64,000 nt of DNA from a virus: IMG/VR virus record IMGVR_UViG_3300025395_000007; one strand, given 5' to 3'. Every line of letters starts with the position of its first letter. Position 1 is the stretch's first letter. The notes below the pieces were generated by a model. That model searched no databases. It saw nothing but the letters and a program-made list of their open reading frames with translations, and was not told where the DNA came from. Shown one piece after another: positions 12,419-32,078 of this stretch. Made by a program: the position numbers and the translations under genes.

Positions 12419-12736
12419 TTACCACTCCGTTCCAACCGTATTACCATTATACTCGTAAATGTAAGAAAAGTCAACACCATATGCAGGTACTACCAAAAGT
12501 TTTTCTGGCATATTGTTCTCATTTAGTTTACCTAATGTACTATGAATAAAAATAGTATCAGGAAACTTATCAGGCGTAAGGCGACGAAGGATGTTAGCTT
12601 GTAAATTGCATTTGTCTTTTAAACGATCAATTTCTTTTTCAAGTTCAACTTTATCACTGCAATGATTACAATAATATCCTTCTGAACAGGATTCACCATG
12701 ACCCATCATGTCACCACAACCTAATTTATACGTCAT
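12419..12736 (-). CDS. Hypothetical protein with an N-terminal Cys cluster
   Basis: CGD...C...YCNHC then a coiled coil. Confidence 0.6.
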   Translation of the reverse strand: MTYKLGCGDMMGHGESCSEGYYCNHCSDKVELEKEIDRLKDKCNLQANILRRLTPDKFPDTIFIHSTLGKLNENNMPEKLLVVPAYGVDFSYIYEYNGNTVGTEW

Positions 12737-12813
12737 AAATTATTTCCAAATCATGTATAGAAAAAAGATAATAATAAGTGTGTTACAAATTTGGTTAGCC
12801 GCCATATCACTCA

Positions 12814-13467
12814 TCATTCAGACTCCCGCCAAGCGACCACGTTCTTGGGATCGTCTGGGTAGTTCTTCACGGGGACCCGAGTGCGCTCCATCTTAGTCAC
12901 CACCTCGCCGTCTGCGAGCATGACGTCGATGAGCCTGCCGTTGACTCGGAATTCAGCAGGGCTGTTATGGTCTGTCGAGTGAACCATCGGCCGCCACAAG
13001 CGCTCCTTCTTTGGTGTCAAAGGTTTCTGGGTACCTAGAACCTGATTGTCCTTCATATGCATCTCTGCAACAACACTCTCAAGCCACTTGTATTTGATCT
13101 CGAGATCACTCAACCGTTTCTCTGTATCATTCTTTGGCTTATCTGGCATCTGATCGACCTTGCCATATAGATCTTGCAATTGACTTTCAATAAAAGCTAG
13201 TTTACGTTCTGCGCTATAATCCATCTTCTTGACCTTCCTTAATATAGTACGATGCGGTGTACTTGCGATGACTTCTACCTTGCCGGAAAGAACTTGTCGA
13301 TCTAGCACGCTATCGATAGCATAAAAACTAACATGAACGTCATTTGTATTCAATTCATTAAAGATGACCTCGCGAGTGAATGTCTGATCATCTCGCATCA
13401 TGTCGATCCAGTGCACTACCCGCCGTGCGTTTTCAATTCCCGTGTCCATCACCATCTCCATAATCAA
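12814..13467 (-). CDS. Hypothetical protein
   Basis: 217-aa ORF preceded by a TTGACT/TATAAT promoter (about 13479-13506). Confidence 0.65.
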   Translation of the reverse strand: MIMEMVMDTGIENARRVVHWIDMMRDDQTFTREVIFNELNTNDVHVSFYAIDSVLDRQVLSGKVEVIASTPHRTILRKVKKMDYSAERKLAFIESQLQDLYGKVDQMPDKPKNDTEKRLSDLEIKYKWLESVVAEMHMKDNQVLGTQKPLTPKKERLWRPMVHSTDHNSPAEFRVNGRLIDVMLADGEVVTKMERTRVPVKNYPDDPKNVVAWRESE

Positions 13468-13502
13468 TCAATAAGTCATTATAGCCCTGTTATTGAATTA
13501 AG

Positions 13503-14228
13503 TCAAGCGTTATTTTTCTTCTCATCAGCGATCATCTCGTCGATATCATCCATCAGCATGTCTAGAGCTTTCATGGTCTTATCAGGTGCATTGATTAGAG
13601 ATGCTGTGGCATAGAGCTCCACTGTCATCTCACGCATCTCTTCGAGTGTTTCTAGACGTGGTTGTATGATGATCTTCTGTAGGAGACTCATGCTTTATTC
13701 CCTAATACAGTTCGTGCACGTTCAATACAATAATCTCTGGCGAATACCTTACCGCCTGATCCACCCTGATCGATCTGTGAGATGATCTCTCGGATGACTG
13801 ACTCTAGCTCTTTGATCCTGTCACCATAGACTACATCGTGCATAGCTATGACGGCACGTAGCTCGTGTATGTCCTCTGCAGCACCCATCAGTTACCTACG
13901 ATCTTTTTCTGTTTGATATTTCCATTCTGATCTTGGAGAATGAACATGACATGCATGGGCTTTTCTGGATACTTCCTATCGTATACAGGTATCTCCTTGA
14001 TGATCTTCCACTTAGAGCGAGTGAACAGCAGGTCCCATATCCATCGCAGCATCACTTGACCTCGATGCAGTATTTGTAATTCATTTTCTCGAAGAAATTG
14101 AGAATACTATCATCTAGTTCTTCCCAATCTTCATTGGTAAGAAATTCATGGACCAAGTTGAACGCACCAGCAACATCCTGTGATACGTCCAACTCAATCT
14201 TACTACCTACAAACTTACTCTTTTTCAT
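13503..14228 (-). CDS. Cluster of four small hypothetical ORFs (13503-13691, 13688-13888, 13888-14052, 14052-14228)
   Basis: Overlapping start and stop codons; upstream sigma70-like promoter near 14259-14286. Confidence 0.6.
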
Positions 14229-14379
14229 GACCAATCTCTGTACCAACATCATATTAACATTATACCATATTCTAAGAATAAGTCAAGCCATTTCTTAGAT
14301 GCGTCTACCTTCGTAAGCCACATATCCTAAACATGCAGTAATAATGAAAAGACCAATTAATACAAATTGAATGACCATT

Positions 14380-14658
14380 TTAATCTCCTGTGTAAATTTC
14401 GTACATCTTCTCAAAGATGTCCTTTTTGTTGAACCAATATTCTCCTTCTGGTCCTTTGATGAGGTAATCTCCCTCCGCCGCGACCATTTTGCCTTCCAAT
14501 GTATATATGGATAATTTGTCCGCAGCGTATGAATTAATTGTAATTTGATTTTGAACACGTGCTGTTTCTACCCAGTCAGGATAGTTTCCTTGATTGACCA
14601 ACTCCAACAGATCAATCTGCCAAGCATCGACGGGAATAGGCTTTTTAATATACTTCAT
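14380..14658 (-). CDS. PGDYG-like phage protein
   Basis: MKYIKKPIPVDAWQ...TLEGKMVAAEGDYLIKGPEGEYW...IFEKMYE. Confidence 0.7.
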   Translation of the reverse strand: MKYIKKPIPVDAWQIDLLELVNQGNYPDWVETARVQNQITINSYAADKLSIYTLEGKMVAAEGDYLIKGPEGEYWFNKKDIFEKMYEIYTGD

Positions 14659-14660
14659 GA

Positions 14661-14909
14661 TTAAACTCCAAAGTGTTTTTTAATGTCGTCAACGATACTC
14701 TGTGTGATAATAGAAACGTGCTTCTTACCATCTTCATCGATGTGCACTTGTTCCCATTTAGAAATTTTACCTACTATCTGACCAATAAGTGATTCCGTAT
14801 ACATACGTAGTTCATTGATGTCAGCAGTAAAATACTGATCATCATCCTCAGTCATTACAGGAAGAATGCCAAACTCATAGCCAAGTTCGCGAACAAAAGA
14901 GTTATCCAT
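14661..14909 (-). CDS. Hypothetical protein
   Basis: ORF with an AAAGGA RBS. Confidence 0.6.
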   Translation of the reverse strand: MDNSFVRELGYEFGILPVMTEDDDQYFTADINELRMYTESLIGQIVGKISKWEQVHIDEDGKKHVSIITQSIVDDIKKHFGV

Positions 14910-14911
14910 TA

Positions 14912-15085
14912 TTAAATCCTTTCAACGACAGGTTTACCAACTATCTGACCAACATGTGTGTTCGAGAGTGTACGTACATAACGAACAGCATCAATAAACG
15001 AAGAGAACTTCTTCGTGCGGTCAATGAGTAGCCCACCCTTATCTAATTGCTTGAACGTATACGTTACTTTAAATCCGTCCGACAT
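14912..15085 (-). CDS. Hypothetical protein
   Basis: Start MSDGF with an AAAGGA RBS; promoter at about 15113-15141. Confidence 0.6.
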   Translation of the reverse strand: MSDGFKVTYTFKQLDKGGLLIDRTKKFSSFIDAVRYVRTLSNTHVGQIVGKPVVERI

Positions 15086-15127
15086 GGTAGTTCCTTTCAA
15101 CATCATTTAACAAACATACCTTGATTC

Positions 15128-15223
15128 TTATAAAAAGTCAACACCTTTGATATATATCCAAAGAAAAACACAAAAAGCAACGGAGGTCGCTGCTCCGAAT
15201 AGGAAACCGAGTATGAACATCAT
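15128..15223 (-). CDS. 31-aa single-TM micro-protein MMFILGFLFGAATSVAFCVFLWIYIKGVDFL
   Basis: Manual translation; ATGA overlap with the stop of the ArfA-like ORF. Confidence 0.5.
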   Translation of the reverse strand: MMFILGFLFGAATSVAFCVFLWIYIKGVDFL

Positions 15224-15330
15224 TTGCTCTTACTCTTACGGGTATACGACCCTTTCCCCTTCTTCGGCCGAACAATACGCTGAGCATATTTCCGCGACGA
15301 CAACTCTTTGGCATAGACACTTCTGGACAT
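15220..15330 (-). CDS. ArfA-like alternative ribosome-rescue peptide, 36 aa; not in the ORF track
   Basis: MSRSVYAKELSSRKYAQRIVRPKKGKGSYTRKSKSK contains the ArfA core QR.....KKGKGSY.RK; AAAGGA RBS; own promoter TTGACT-N16-TATAAT at 15361-15388 (-). Confidence 0.75.
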   Translation of the reverse strand: MSRSVYAKELSSRKYAQRIVRPKKGKGSYTRKSKSK

Positions 15331-15478
15331 CGTTTAATCCTTTCCAAGACGACATTACTGATTATACCGTAATGGCCGAGGAAGTCAACACTTTTCTTGG
15401 TCGTTTTTTGGAAGATAGTTGTTGATTTCTTTTTATAATGAGGTATACTTATCTTAAGGTTGAAATGGAGATGAAAAG

Positions 15479-15727
15479 ATGAAAATGTTTGAAATGACTC
15501 AACGAGCATATACCAGAAGCCTTTTGTCCGACGTTTCCGAGGGAATGTTTGACAAAGATAATCTTATCCGTGATCTCCTTAACTGGATGAGCGAAAAAGA
15601 CGTCAAAGAATTCTGTCAGGCCAACGACATCTATTCGGAGTCCGAGGATGAAGACGAAGAAGATGAGGACGAAGGTCGCGATTGGGGTATGGAATGGTAC
15701 GACACGAGCATGGAATTGCAAGCCTGA
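15479..15727 (+). CDS. Early acidic hypothetical protein
   Basis: Own promoter and RBS; E/D-rich tail. Confidence 0.7.
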   Translation: MKMFEMTQRAYTRSLLSDVSEGMFDKDNLIRDLLNWMSEKDVKEFCQANDIYSESEDEDEEDEDEGRDWGMEWYDTSMELQA

Positions 15728-15793
15728 GATAATTGTTGACTTCTTCTGAGAATAAGGTATAATGATACTATGATGAAAACAAAGGAAATCTCC

Positions 15794-16138
15794 ATGAATA
15801 ATATCTCTGATCTTATCGACAAGGCCAACGACCTTGCCATCGACTACGTTGAACAAATGGATTTAGTGACCGCCGACAAGGCTGGACTTGATCCCCGCTG
15901 TGGCAGCATCTGGATCGGCGAGGACTGCATCGCAGTCAAAGGTAGCTACGGCAAACGAATGATCGAATACTACGGTGGGTTTGAATACGTCAATAAAGAC
16001 GAAGTATTCGCCCTCGGTGAATTCACCTTCTACTCCAGCGAGTCAAGTCGTGTTTCCGAATGCATCGATCTGTATTTGGAGATGAAAGAAAAAGGAGAAG
16101 ATGAAGAGGAAAATGAAGAGGAAGAGGTAGCCGCATAA
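15794..16138 (+). CDS. Early hypothetical protein, acidic tail ending VAA
   Basis: Own promoter (15736); AAGGA RBS. Confidence 0.75.
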   Translation: MNNISDLIDKANDLAIDYVEQMDLVTADKAGLDPRCGSIWIGEDCIAVKGSYGKRMIEYYGGFEYVNKDEVFALGEFTFYSSESSRVSECIDLYLEMKEKGEDEEENEEEEVAA

Positions 16139-16199
16139 ATCGTTTGATTTAATTCCAATTGTATGGTATAATGGTAATATGATGGAAAAGGAAAAAGAG

Positions 16200-16415
16200 A
16201 TGACTCTGGTCGAAGCATTAGGATTGATCGCTGCATCGGAATTTAAGCCATTTACAGACGCCGACTGGTATGCATTCAGTGGGTGTGAAACAGCTGATCC
16301 AAAAATAGCCTATGATGAAGACCTCGGTCTTACTATTATTATTGACGGAAATACTATCGATTTCATCGACGATGAAGGTGAATCTGTTAATATTCTTAAA
16401 TTGATAACTAACTGA
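16200..16415 (+). CDS. Early hypothetical protein, paralog of 23612-23878
   Basis: Shares EAL.L.A...F.PF...DWYAF..CET..P.IA...TI.IDG.TI with 23612-23878. Confidence 0.75.
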   Translation: MTLVEALGLIAASEFKPFTDADWYAFSGCETADPKIAYDEDLGLTIIIDGNTIDFIDDEGESVNILKLITN

Positions 16416-16427
16416 GGATTATATATT

Positions 16428-16781
16428 ATGTCAACACGTTCAATGGTCGCTTTCGATAATACTTCTGAAGTAGTTTCTATGCGAGTTCACTTCGATGGAT
16501 ATTTAACTGGAGTAGGTCATACTTTGCTCAATCACTATACTACTGTAGACAAAGTAGAAGATCTGATGGAATGTGGATATGTATCTTCATTGGAAACAGC
16601 GATAGAGTATATGCCAAACAATCCAAATGAACGTCCAGTGGTTCATAGTAACATCAAAGAACTGATTGCTGATTTTGAAACATCTGATGCTGAATATCTT
16701 TACGTATTCGACGGTAATGAATGGGCTTACACCATGAGGGATCATAATCGGCTTATTCCTTTCAGCGAGGCATTCGCGTAA
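16428..16781 (+). CDS. Early protein of the MSTRS...HFDGY...VG..L family
   Basis: Motif pattern MSTRS, HFDGYLTGVG, EYLYVF seen in phage early proteins. Confidence 0.7.
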   Translation: MSTRSMVAFDNTSEVVSMRVHFDGYLTGVGHTLLNHYTTVDKVEDLMECGYVSSLETAIEYMPNNPNERPVVHSNIKELIADFETSDAEYLYVFDGNEWAYTMRDHNRLIPFSEAFA

Positions 16782-16786
16782 TAGGT

Positions 16787-17220
16787 GTTGACTTCTTCTG
16801 AGAATATGGTATAATAATCTTACGGTTGAAAAAGGAAAAACAAATGACTGACATGAATCTCGTTCTCTCGTTCGTAACTCTCGATGCCAATAATGATCAG
16901 CTGAATAACATTATGGAGGCTGTTAAATTTCGTCGGGATAAGCTGGCCCGTCTTAATCGGTTTGCCATCGCTGTCGGTTCCGCCGTCAAATTCTCGCATC
17001 GTGGCGTAGATTACAACGGAACTGTCAAATCAATTAAGGTGAAGAAAGCTGTCGTTGAATGCAAACACCCGAATGCTGTCTGTGCCTACGACTCGAAAAT
17101 GCGTTCGGTTGCTCCTACCATCAATTATACTGTTCCTCTGAATATGTTGGAGGCAGCCTAAGATAGGGGTTGACTTCTTCTGAGAATAAGGTATAATAAT
17201 CTTATGGTTGAAAAAGGAAA
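16787..17220 (+). repeat. 52-bp direct repeat (promoter plus leader) at 16787-16838 and 17169-17220; 29-bp copy at 15735-15763
   Basis: GTTGACTTCTTCTGAGAATAWGGTATAATAATCTTAYGGTTGAAAAAGGAAA, with 2 mismatches between the two long copies. Confidence 0.9.
16844..17161 (+). CDS. Early hypothetical protein (SH3/KOW-like), ending EAA
   Basis: Own promoter; AVGSAVKF...GTVKSIKVKKAVV. Confidence 0.7.
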   Translation: MTDMNLVLSFVTLDANNDQLNNIMEAVKFRRDKLARLNRFAIAVGSAVKFSHRGVDYNGTVKSIKVKKAVVECKHPNAVCAYDSKMRSVAPTINYTVPLNMLEAA

Positions 17221-30446: not shown

Positions 30447-30663
30447 TATCGATGCTGAGACAATTGATAAGATTTTTCAAAATACTTTGATTCAAGATTA
30501 TCGTATGCTGTTAAAACAGAAACAAGAGCTTACTGAAAAACTGACAACAGTGTCATTGCACCAATACGAGCTTGAAGATCTTAATGATACAGATCGTTGG
30601 CTTTCAGGTATAGGGATCATGATGGAATATTATATTGGTGCTAATTGGAAAGATAAAGTTTGA
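30436..30663 (+). CDS. Hypothetical protein
   Basis: ORF with a GGAG RBS. Confidence 0.6.
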   Translation: MLIDIDAETIDKIFQNTLIQDYRMLLKQKQELTEKLTTVSLHQYELEDLNDTDRWLSGIGIMMEYYIGANWKDKV

Positions 30664-30694
30664 CTTTTCTCTCTAATAAGGTATAATAAATATA

Positions 30695-30760
30695 TTGCTG
30701 ATGTTGATGACATCTAGTGGAATAGACACTGAGGACGCGGGGGCGGTACCCGCCGCCTCA
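30695..30760 (+). pseudogene. Remnant acceptor piece of a permuted tmRNA
   Basis: GGAC-GCGGG-GGCGGTA-CCCGC-CGCCTCA has the alphaproteobacterial tmRNA T loop but lacks CCACCA; it follows a TTGACT/TATAAT promoter at 30660-30687. Confidence 0.75.
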
Positions 30761-30799
30761 AAATTAATTTTATATAAATAAGTTAAAAAGGACATCTTT

Positions 30800-31351
30800 A
30801 TGGCTTATTATGTATATAAAATTACAAATAAAATAAACAGTAAATGGTATATAGGTAAACGCAAGCATATGTCGCCGCTTAATGATTCTTACATGGGTAG
30901 TGGTAAACTAATTAAAGCTGCTATTGTCAAATATGGTGTAGATAATTTTATTAAAGAAATATTACAAATTTTTGATACTAATGATGAAGCCGCTAATTTA
31001 GAGAAAACATTAGTAACAAAACAAGCTATCAATACTAATATGTCTTATAACATGCATGAAGGTGGACACGGAGGATTTGCGCATTTAAATGATGGCAGTA
31101 AAGCACATAAAGAGCGATCAAAAAAAGGTGCAATGAACTCTACAGGTAAATTACATCCAAATTGGGGTAAATCTTCGTTTGCTAAAGATGATCCAAGAAC
31201 TATTGAAATGTCTAAAAAAGCAAATGAAAATAGGAAAAAAAATGGTCTTACTAATGAGCATAAAGAAAAAATAAAAATTGCTTCAATAAAAAGAGAAGAG
31301 CAAAGAAGATTAACAGGTTATTATCAGAAAATGTCGGCTGATAATTATTAG
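30800..31351 (+). mobile_element. Free-standing GIY-YIG (Seg-like) homing endonuclease
   Basis: YVYKITNKINSKWYIG, YMGSG, KYGVDNF.KEIL, YN...GG.GG; late promoter TATAAATA at 30773-30780. Confidence 0.9.
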
Positions 31352-31576
31352 AAAATATACAAAATAGCTATGGACTCGGCTCTCGGATGCCGACATCTCC
31401 ACCAATTTATACGGGGATGAAAGGGATCGACATGGTATGGAGTATTTTTTTAGACATCGTGTGCAAACTACGTTAACGTAAGATAAAATTATCTGCAAAC
31501 GATAATTCACTTCTTGAGATGCGCCTAGCGGCTTAATCTCTTGGGTATGAGTTCCACCTCGAAACAGAACGGGCTC
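31330..31576 (+). ncRNA. ssrA: Circularly permuted (two-piece) tmRNA
   Basis: Acceptor piece ends CATCTCCACCA (31404); 8-nt spacer; coding piece starts GGGGATG (31413, G3:U70) followed by GAAAGGGATCGAC; tag 31495-31536 reads ANDNSLLEMRLAA*; terminal hairpin GAGTTC...GGGCTC. The 5' boundary is approximate. Confidence 0.92.
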
Positions 31577-31615
31577 ACTTTATAACACACAAAACACACA
31601 CAAAGGAGACTACAA

Positions 31616-31828
31616 ATGAGTACACCATACGATTTAAGATTTAATCTTGTTCATTTCGCAAGAGATCAACTTAACGCTGAATATCAGGCTGCTCTGGAAA
31701 AGATTATATTATCATATCCAGAAGCTTCCGAAGAAAAAACAAAATTAATTTCTGCTCTTAAATATCCAACAAAATCGGATATTATTAATCTTGCTGAAGA
31801 AATTAAAAAGTTTGTCGACAATAAGTAA
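31616..31828 (+). CDS. Small conserved-type phage protein
   Basis: MSTPYDLRF...YPT..DII.LAEEIKKFV; AAGGAG RBS. Confidence 0.75.
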   Translation: MSTPYDLRFNLVHFARDQLNAEYQAALEKIILSYPEASEEKTKLISALKYPTKSDIINLAEEIKKFVDNK

Positions 31829-31840
31829 TATAATTGGTCA

Positions 31841-31890
31841 CCTAGCGGCTTGATCGGAGTTCGGGAGGCACTTGGCAACAGAAGCCTCCC
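31841..31890 (+). pseudogene. Remnant 3' tail of a second tmRNA coding piece
   Basis: CCTAGCGGCTT.ATC repeats the tag end at 31524 (LAA*); hairpin GGGAGGC-ACTTGGCAACAGAA-GCCTCCC parallels CACCTCGAAACAGAA. Confidence 0.6.
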
Positions 31891-31903
31891 ACCTAATTTT
31901 ATT

Positions 31904-31986: not shown

Positions 31987-32078
31987 GGGGGTGGGTGTTG
32001 GTACACAGGGAGTCCTTATAAGGCTTTCAGCGGCAGATTACCGTTCTCGACAGGGTTCAAATCCTTGCACCCCTACCA
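31987..32078 (+). tRNA. Atypical tRNA with UAU anticodon (nominal Ile) and a long variable arm
   Basis: GGGGGTG/CACCCCT-ACCA acceptor; D arm GTGT-TGGT-ACAC; loop CTTATAA; V arm AGCGG/CCGTT; T arm CAGGG-TTCAAAT-CCTTG. Confidence 0.8.

Follow-up and report, generated by a model that had tools for sequence, protein, structure and literature searches.

Does a 36-codon open reading frame (ORF) at the divergence point of a phage early region encode a ribosome-rescue peptide of the ArfA type, and does it work beside the phage's own tmRNA? Ribosome rescue has proved essential wherever it has been tested in bacteria, and ArfA has been described as a back-up factor of gamma- and betaproteobacteria and a few Bacillus species that is made only upon tmRNA failure. 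In Escherichia coli, arfA is expressed from a truncated, non-stop mRNA, and its product is tagged by tmRNA. The question was raised by a prediction made from the letters of a 64,000-nt stretch of viral DNA alone (IMG/VR record IMGVR_UViG_3300025395_000007, hereafter the window), according to which an early ArfA-like peptide, a tmRNA and tRNAs form a phage system that recycles stalled ribosomes.

The window encodes a gp43-type family B DNA polymerase, UvsX, a gp41-like helicase, gp32, gp59 and Hsp20, and the best tblastn matches of the polymerase and gp32 in the phage collection are to cyanomyophages (∼50–55% identity). The source is an uncultured T4-like myophage of marine origin. The ORF in question, which we term mini-ArfA, encodes exactly the 36 residues that had been predicted (MSRSVYAKELSSRKYAQRIVRPKKGKGSYTRKSKSK), and the near-consensus sigma70 promoter, the ribosome-binding site and the real stop codon that had been assigned to it were all found again (Table 1). 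Because an in-frame TAA lies two codons 5' of the ATG, the open frame is tightly bounded and comprises only 37 codons. The stem of the terminator alone spans 15196..15174 (−) and is followed by a T-run; the terminator aside, the fold of the transcript is unremarkable (z = −0.98). Two overlapping ORFs (15138-15509 on the minus strand and 15147-15425 on the plus strand) were considered and rejected as genes: no credible family match was obtained for either, and the promoters and the terminator lie within their span. A megablast search of the phage collection with the mini-ArfA locus yielded no match. In a related IMG/VR contig (L002 = G001), the aligned segments are 96.7–99.5% identical to the window and the ArfA locus is 100% identical.

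Table 1. Positions of mini-ArfA, its expression signals and the tmRNA locus in the window.
Feature	Position	Strand	Basis or remark
mini-ArfA ORF, 36 codons, ATG to TGA	15220..15330	−	ORF call, Pfam ArfA above cut-off, alignment to E. coli ArfA
sigma70-type early promoter of mini-ArfA, TTGACT, 16-nt spacer, TATAAT	15361..15388	−	11/12 matches
Shine-Dalgarno-like GGAAAGGA, 7 nt 5' of the mini-ArfA ATG	15338..15345	−	sequence reading
intrinsic terminator, 9-bp stem, 5-nt loop and T-run	15164..15196	−	begins 26 nt past the mini-ArfA TGA
eighth exact-type promoter, TTGACT-N16-TATAAT	30660..30687	+	∼600 nt 5' of the tmRNA
intact two-piece (permuted) alpha-type tmRNA	31278..31579	+	RF04321 82.2 bits, RF01849 60.5 bits, both full-length

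Exact TTGACT-N16/17-TATAAT sequences occur eight times in the window, versus 0.10 expected by chance. Four are on the minus strand at 12.4–15.4 kb and three on the plus strand at 15.7–17.2 kb, whereas the eighth is separated from the tmRNA by a tmRNA remnant and a GIY-YIG ORF. Given the four leftward and three rightward promoters, mini-ArfA is the first gene in the leftward arm of a divergent early region; the sign of the GC skew also flips at this site, in agreement with the divergence point named in the original prediction. Three of the eight exact promoters (within 12446-17197 and at 30660-30687) share one spacer (TCTTCTGAGAATA[AT]GG), and the promoter at 14259-14286 resembles it over the second half only (GAATATGG). 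Each of the small early ORFs seems to have its own promoter, and the G+C content of the early region (12–28 kb) is 41–45%, compared with 32–38% in the rest of the window. Mini-ArfA would thus appear to be a single-gene unit comprising promoter, ribosome-binding site, ORF, stop and terminator, transcribed early by the host RNA polymerase and then translated; jointly with the rescue function discussed below, we consider this reading probable.

Sequence comparison places mini-ArfA in the ArfA family as a genuine, shortened member. The profile search against ArfA (DUF331) that had been proposed as a check was positive, with a score of 30.6 bits for Pfam ArfA (PF03889; cut-off, 25.5 bits; E = 2.2e-7), the local match spanning residues 12–35 only. 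NCBIfam yielded no match, and PHROGs yielded families of unknown function only. Among solved structures, the sole phmmer matches to mini-ArfA are six ArfA chains from ribosome structures (5MGP, 7OJ0, 5U4I, 5MDV, 5MDW and 5H5U; E ∼0.01). BLASTP against E. coli ArfA gave 12 identities over 20 positions (E = 9e-7), and hhalign with a profile of 80 family members gave a probability of 96.3% (E = 1.5e-9, 39 columns), pairing mini-ArfA residues 2–36 with ArfA residues 12–46 and thus including the non-basic N-terminal half. The alignment to E. coli ArfA is gapless, residues 1–36 corresponding to ArfA 11–46. The reference was arfA of MG1655 (L181:4432-4650), with which the ArfA motif quoted in the original prediction agrees. 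The conserved positions are L20, F25 (Tyr in mini-ArfA), Q27, R28, V29 (Ile in mini-ArfA), K33-Y39, R41 and K42 in ArfA numbering. The position of ArfA N14 is Asn in most relatives and Ser in the mini-ArfA of the window, and V20 of mini-ArfA is nearly invariant in the 80-member family alignment.

In E. coli ArfA, residues 15–24 form a short helix at the decoding centre, residues 27–30 add a strand to domain 2 of RF2, L19, L24 and F25 contact RF2 at Trp319, Val198 and Phe217, and the tail lies in the mRNA channel from approximately residue 31, being ordered only to residues 46–48 (PMC8012679; PMC5378476). Upon RF2 opening, residues 1–10 fold back onto h44 and S12 and Ile11 packs against Ala18; the A18T substitution abolishes the activation of RF2 and not its binding (PMC5378476). 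At the sequence level, the KKGKGSY.RK tail of mini-ArfA is the same as E. coli ArfA 33–42 except for one position, and its QRIV aligns with the QRVE (Q27–E30) of the RF2 domain 2 strand. The N-terminal minidomain, as defined by residues 1–16, the Ile11/Ala18 core and the L19/L24/F25 patch, is incomplete in mini-ArfA: there is no counterpart of residues 1–10, A18, L19 and L24 are replaced by Lys, Glu and Lys, respectively, and only L20 and F25 (as Tyr) are kept. The peptide had been equated with the short active core of ArfA. This description is correct in that it spans the A-site and mRNA-channel segments, but it overlooks that ArfA residues 1–10 are missing and that Ala18 has become Lys.

The family extends well beyond the window. 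A phmmer search of 1.8 billion representative proteins returned 16 matches, all of 33–69 residues, with the consensus RN..AK.L...KY.QRIV.PKKGKGSY.RK, and 306 viral contigs in IMG/VR encode a relative of mini-ArfA. The family is a large group of stop-terminated genes of 30–50 residues, and it is under purifying selection (pN/pS ∼0.2; pairwise values, 0.16 for viral copies and 0.20 for SAR11 copies). Weak tblastn matches were found in isolated phages of Pelagibacter, Citromicrobium, Roseobacter, Caulobacter, Erythrobacter, Brevundimonas and Microcystis. Seven of the eight isolate-phage ORFs tested match Pfam ArfA, six of them at or above the cut-off; gp30 of pelagiphage HTVC027P scored 20.2 bits, which is below it, and the match in Roseobacter phage CRP-212 sits inside a large gene and lay outside the Pfam scan. 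In GenBank, ArfA is annotated in two isolates, Brevundimonas phage Kikimora and Citromicrobium phage RXM. Phage ArfA has been mentioned briefly in two papers (PMC8953757; PMC12753301), and HTVC027P gp30 is transcribed during infection (PMC12753301).

Two further observations concern the viral relatives. An unannotated ArfA-family ORF with a Pfam score of 29.6 bits is present in Caulobacter phage Cr30 (L212:1501-1596; KF301602.1 11142-11237), where it occupies a gap between genes and is one gene away from that of an RNA ligase. In addition, an ArfA-like module occurs inside proteins of 101–142 residues (L020:3661-4089, L032:368-784, L042:3150-3566, L060:440-751 and L070:3206-3616), which share a conserved C-terminal part (...NKAGNYTKP...GQWSARKAQ...GGGY) and, in some cases, a conserved N-terminal part as well; no Pfam family other than ArfA was detected in these proteins.

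The search of bacterial genomes gave 259 matching loci; of these, 79 of the 80 best are from Pelagibacterales, many of them on large chromosomal contigs (SAR11 chromosomal copies, L082-L161; e.g. L106:2992-3099 and L089:2992-3108). A six-frame Pfam ArfA search was positive in 65 of 151 Pelagibacterales genomes and in 15 of 401 sampled Alphaproteobacteria; a 2024 survey reported arfA in none of 2,376 Alphaproteobacteria genomes (PMC11633108). The SAR11 gene has 34–42 codons, overlapping with the stop of the Trans_reg_C regulator gene that lies upstream, and the gene order YkuD, regulator, mini-ArfA, PfkB, endonuclease III and DapB is conserved, the last three genes being convergent. An ArfB-sized RF-1 domain gene was not found in the 41 Pelagibacterales genomes searched, which contained only RF1- and RF2-sized ones. 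This absence and the housekeeping synteny fit a real cellular rescue role of the short form. RF2 is present in all of the 61 alphaproteobacterial genomes inspected, with its ArfA-contact residues Val198, Phe217 and Trp319 invariant or nearly so. A recent capture of the gene from SAR11 was considered and rejected: the nucleotide identity to the closest SAR11 copy listed (L085) is 62%, and the phage ORF is much richer in G+C than SAR11 genes; recent transfer is therefore not indicated.

The SAR11 copies also bear on regulation. With its TGA 26 nt upstream of the terminator stem, the mini-ArfA gene does not have the arrangement that yields a non-stop mRNA. None of the short viral and bacterial family copies scanned showed a terminator ending before the stop; the stop and a terminator-like hairpin overlap in one viral clade, and the same is seen in a single bacterial copy (L132). 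In the viral clade L014-L019 and L028 (e.g. L017:9998-10114), mini-ArfA has 38 residues and its TAA lies in the loop of a terminator hairpin of 9–10 bp (GGGGATAATTCCCC type); a permuted tmRNA is likewise encoded by both near-complete genomes of this clade (157 and 202 kb). Because the chromosomal SAR11 copies and most viral copies are short and stop-terminated, the true stop is a trait of the subfamily and not a phage escape device. The proposal that a real stop allows the phage ORF to escape the control acting on arfA is therefore not upheld, since the cellular SAR11 copies are stop-terminated too. Since the stop is placed well before the terminator, mini-ArfA should be synthesized constitutively, and no tagging by tmRNA would be expected.

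The predicted phage tmRNA and the tRNAs beside it are present. The tmRNA matches both Rfam tmRNA_permuted (RF04321) and alpha_tmRNA (RF01849), has a CCACCA acceptor end and contains a tag reading frame that ends with LAA, followed by a stop; it was missed by ARAGORN. Two tRNAs were detected 3' of the tmRNA by ARAGORN, and a distant blastn search of the tmRNA/tRNA region against the phage collection yielded tRNA-Arg matches only. An ARAGORN call for tRNA-Ile (anticodon UAU, 92 nt, 31987-32078) was not reported by the Rfam tRNA model at the gathering score, and the adjoining tRNA-Arg was. A SegE-like GIY-YIG endonuclease ORF (30800-31351) is located directly 5' of the tmRNA, and weak, partial tmRNA-like matches flank the intact gene at 30700-30882 (29 bits) and 31754-31893 (33 bits), a pattern suggestive of a homing-endonuclease event in which parts of the tmRNA locus were duplicated or replaced.

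The combination of the two genes is found elsewhere. A permuted tmRNA is present in 4 of the 15 IMG/VR contigs of at least 40 kb that encode mini-ArfA, including all 3 that are at least 90% complete (157, 202 and 338 kb), and in 2 of the 8 named phages, Erythrobacter phage XM05 and Kikimora; it was not found in Cr30, RXM, HTVC034P, HTVC027P, CRP-212 and Mwe-JY26. Overall, tmRNA occurs in 2.3% of phage genomes (PMC9004378). Against that background, these counts, which are not matched for genome size, indicate a pairing that recurs in several lineages of large phages; a large genome may simply accumulate both genes. The pairing is not obligatory.

The reading that we prefer is that mini-ArfA is probably an always-on, early, ArfA-type rescue peptide whose action depends on a release factor. 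By analogy with ArfA, its basic tail (residues 21–36, containing KKGKGSY.RK) would enter the empty mRNA entry channel of a ribosome stalled at the 3' end of a truncated mRNA, QRIV (ArfA Q27–E30) would add a beta-strand to domain 2 of RF2, and Leu10 and Tyr15 (ArfA L20 and F25) would touch RF2. RF2 would then hydrolyse the peptidyl-tRNA without a stop codon, and the phage would have two arms, one for tagging by its own tmRNA and one, always on, for release. Ribosome binding, the recruitment and activation of RF2 and a benefit during host mRNA decay or RNase-type defence are what this analogy would predict; with ArfA residues 1–10 missing, the activation of RF2 is a step that we infer. A counterpoint is that the ribosomes acted on by an unregulated ArfA are also the substrate of the phage's own tmRNA-SmpB, and the two would compete for them.

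Because the N-terminal segment is missing, two other functions have to be weighed. The peptide may bind the channel without activating a release factor, perhaps holding RF2 in a compact, inactive state as ArfA-A18T does, and may thereby be a modulator or inhibitor that, for example, blocks the host SmpB-tmRNA or parks host ribosomes. The loss of the 10 N-terminal residues and the change of Ala18 to Lys point in this direction; RF2 opening is coupled to an ordered minidomain in E. coli, where ArfA-A18T binds without release (PMC8012679; PMC5378476). However, the short form is also the SAR11 chromosomal form, with housekeeping synteny, purifying selection and no visible partner antitoxin; moreover, a phage with its own tmRNA would block its own system, and the 40 residues of ArfT, a rescue peptide of Francisella tularensis, are enough for rescue. 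We regard such a channel binder as quite unlikely. It is unlikely, too, that mini-ArfA senses the empty channel and works with another partner or in another mode, using RF1 as well as RF2 or another hydrolase. ArfT, which is active with RF1 or RF2, provides a precedent in 40 residues (PMC6299226), and the minidomain that gives RF2 specificity is incomplete in mini-ArfA, in which the hydrophobic patch is partly kept and the fold-back segment missing. On the other hand, family members retain the QR[IV]V strand and have an aromatic residue in place of F25. Whereas no homology is detectable for ArfT, that of mini-ArfA to ArfA is clear.

That the ORF is spurious or decaying, or encodes a generic basic nucleic-acid-binding peptide without a role at the ribosome, is very improbable. 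The peptide is very short and rich in lysine and arginine, its single-sequence E-values against solved structures are weak, and some viral relatives carry the module in the 101–142-residue proteins of unknown function mentioned above. However, the Pfam cut-off was passed, the profile-profile probability was 96% over 39 columns, pN/pS is ∼0.2, the gene has a dedicated promoter, ribosome-binding site and terminator, and the locus is 100% identical in a strain that is otherwise 96.7–99.5% identical over the aligned segments. It is this conservation, the selection signal and the dedicated expression signals that disfavour a spurious ORF. A more far-reaching proposal, which we put forward tentatively and with considerable doubt, is that the mini-ArfA subfamily activates release factors in a way unlike that of E. 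coli ArfA, possibly both RF1 and RF2, because the fold-back half of the minidomain is missing and the peptide is never made from a non-stop mRNA. Expressed early, together with tmRNA, in large alphaproteobacterial phages, it may constitute an always-on ribosome-freeing module against host mRNA decay or RNase-type abortive infection.

If mini-ArfA is active, a constitutive release pathway would be supplied by many marine phages themselves, in some cases together with a tmRNA of their own, and a back-up factor would exist after all in SAR11 bacteria, of which 41 genomes revealed no ArfB. The full ArfA minidomain would then not be needed for the activation of a release factor. At 36 residues, mini-ArfA is within reach of chemical synthesis, so its activity is directly testable. 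Short phage ArfA genes are already known as annotations, and the HTVC027P homologue is known to be transcribed. What is modestly new is an overlooked, stop-terminated ArfA lineage in SAR11 and alphaproteobacterial phages and its recurrent pairing with a two-piece tmRNA.

Compared with E. coli ArfA (YhdL), a factor of gamma- and betaproteobacteria, mini-ArfA retains the channel tail, the Q-R-V/I strand, Leu20 and Phe25 (here Tyr), and its last residue coincides with the end of the ordered part seen in ArfA structures (residues 46–48). It differs in the absence of residues 1–10 and of the hydrophobic C-terminal extension and in having Lys in place of Ala18. In addition, it has no hairpin or terminator before the stop and hence no control through non-stop mRNA and tmRNA, and it is phage-borne, with relatives in Alphaproteobacteria and their phages. 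The SAR11 mini-ArfA shares with the phage gene ∼55–64% identity, a length of 34–42 residues, the motifs, a true stop and a score above the Pfam cut-off, but it overlaps the stop of the regulator gene and has no promoter-terminator cassette of its own. The genes of RXM (g10), Kikimora (KIKIMORA_04590) and HTVC027P (gp30) are likewise short and stop-terminated, with Pfam ArfA scores of 20–37 bits, and that of Kikimora also encodes 36 residues in a phage that has a permuted tmRNA. However, these three genes show ∼48–70% identity over partial matches with weak single-sequence E-values and belong to other phage backbones, and RXM and HTVC027P, unlike the window, contain no permuted tmRNA. ArfT of F. 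tularensis, known from Francisella only, has no detectable homology to mini-ArfA and can act with either RF1 or RF2, but it is similarly a stop-terminated, constitutive rescue peptide of ∼40 residues with a KGKGS-like basic tail (PMC6299226). As an unregulated peptide of 40 residues that is a working rescue factor, ArfT demonstrates that a small, always-on design can work (PMC6299226).
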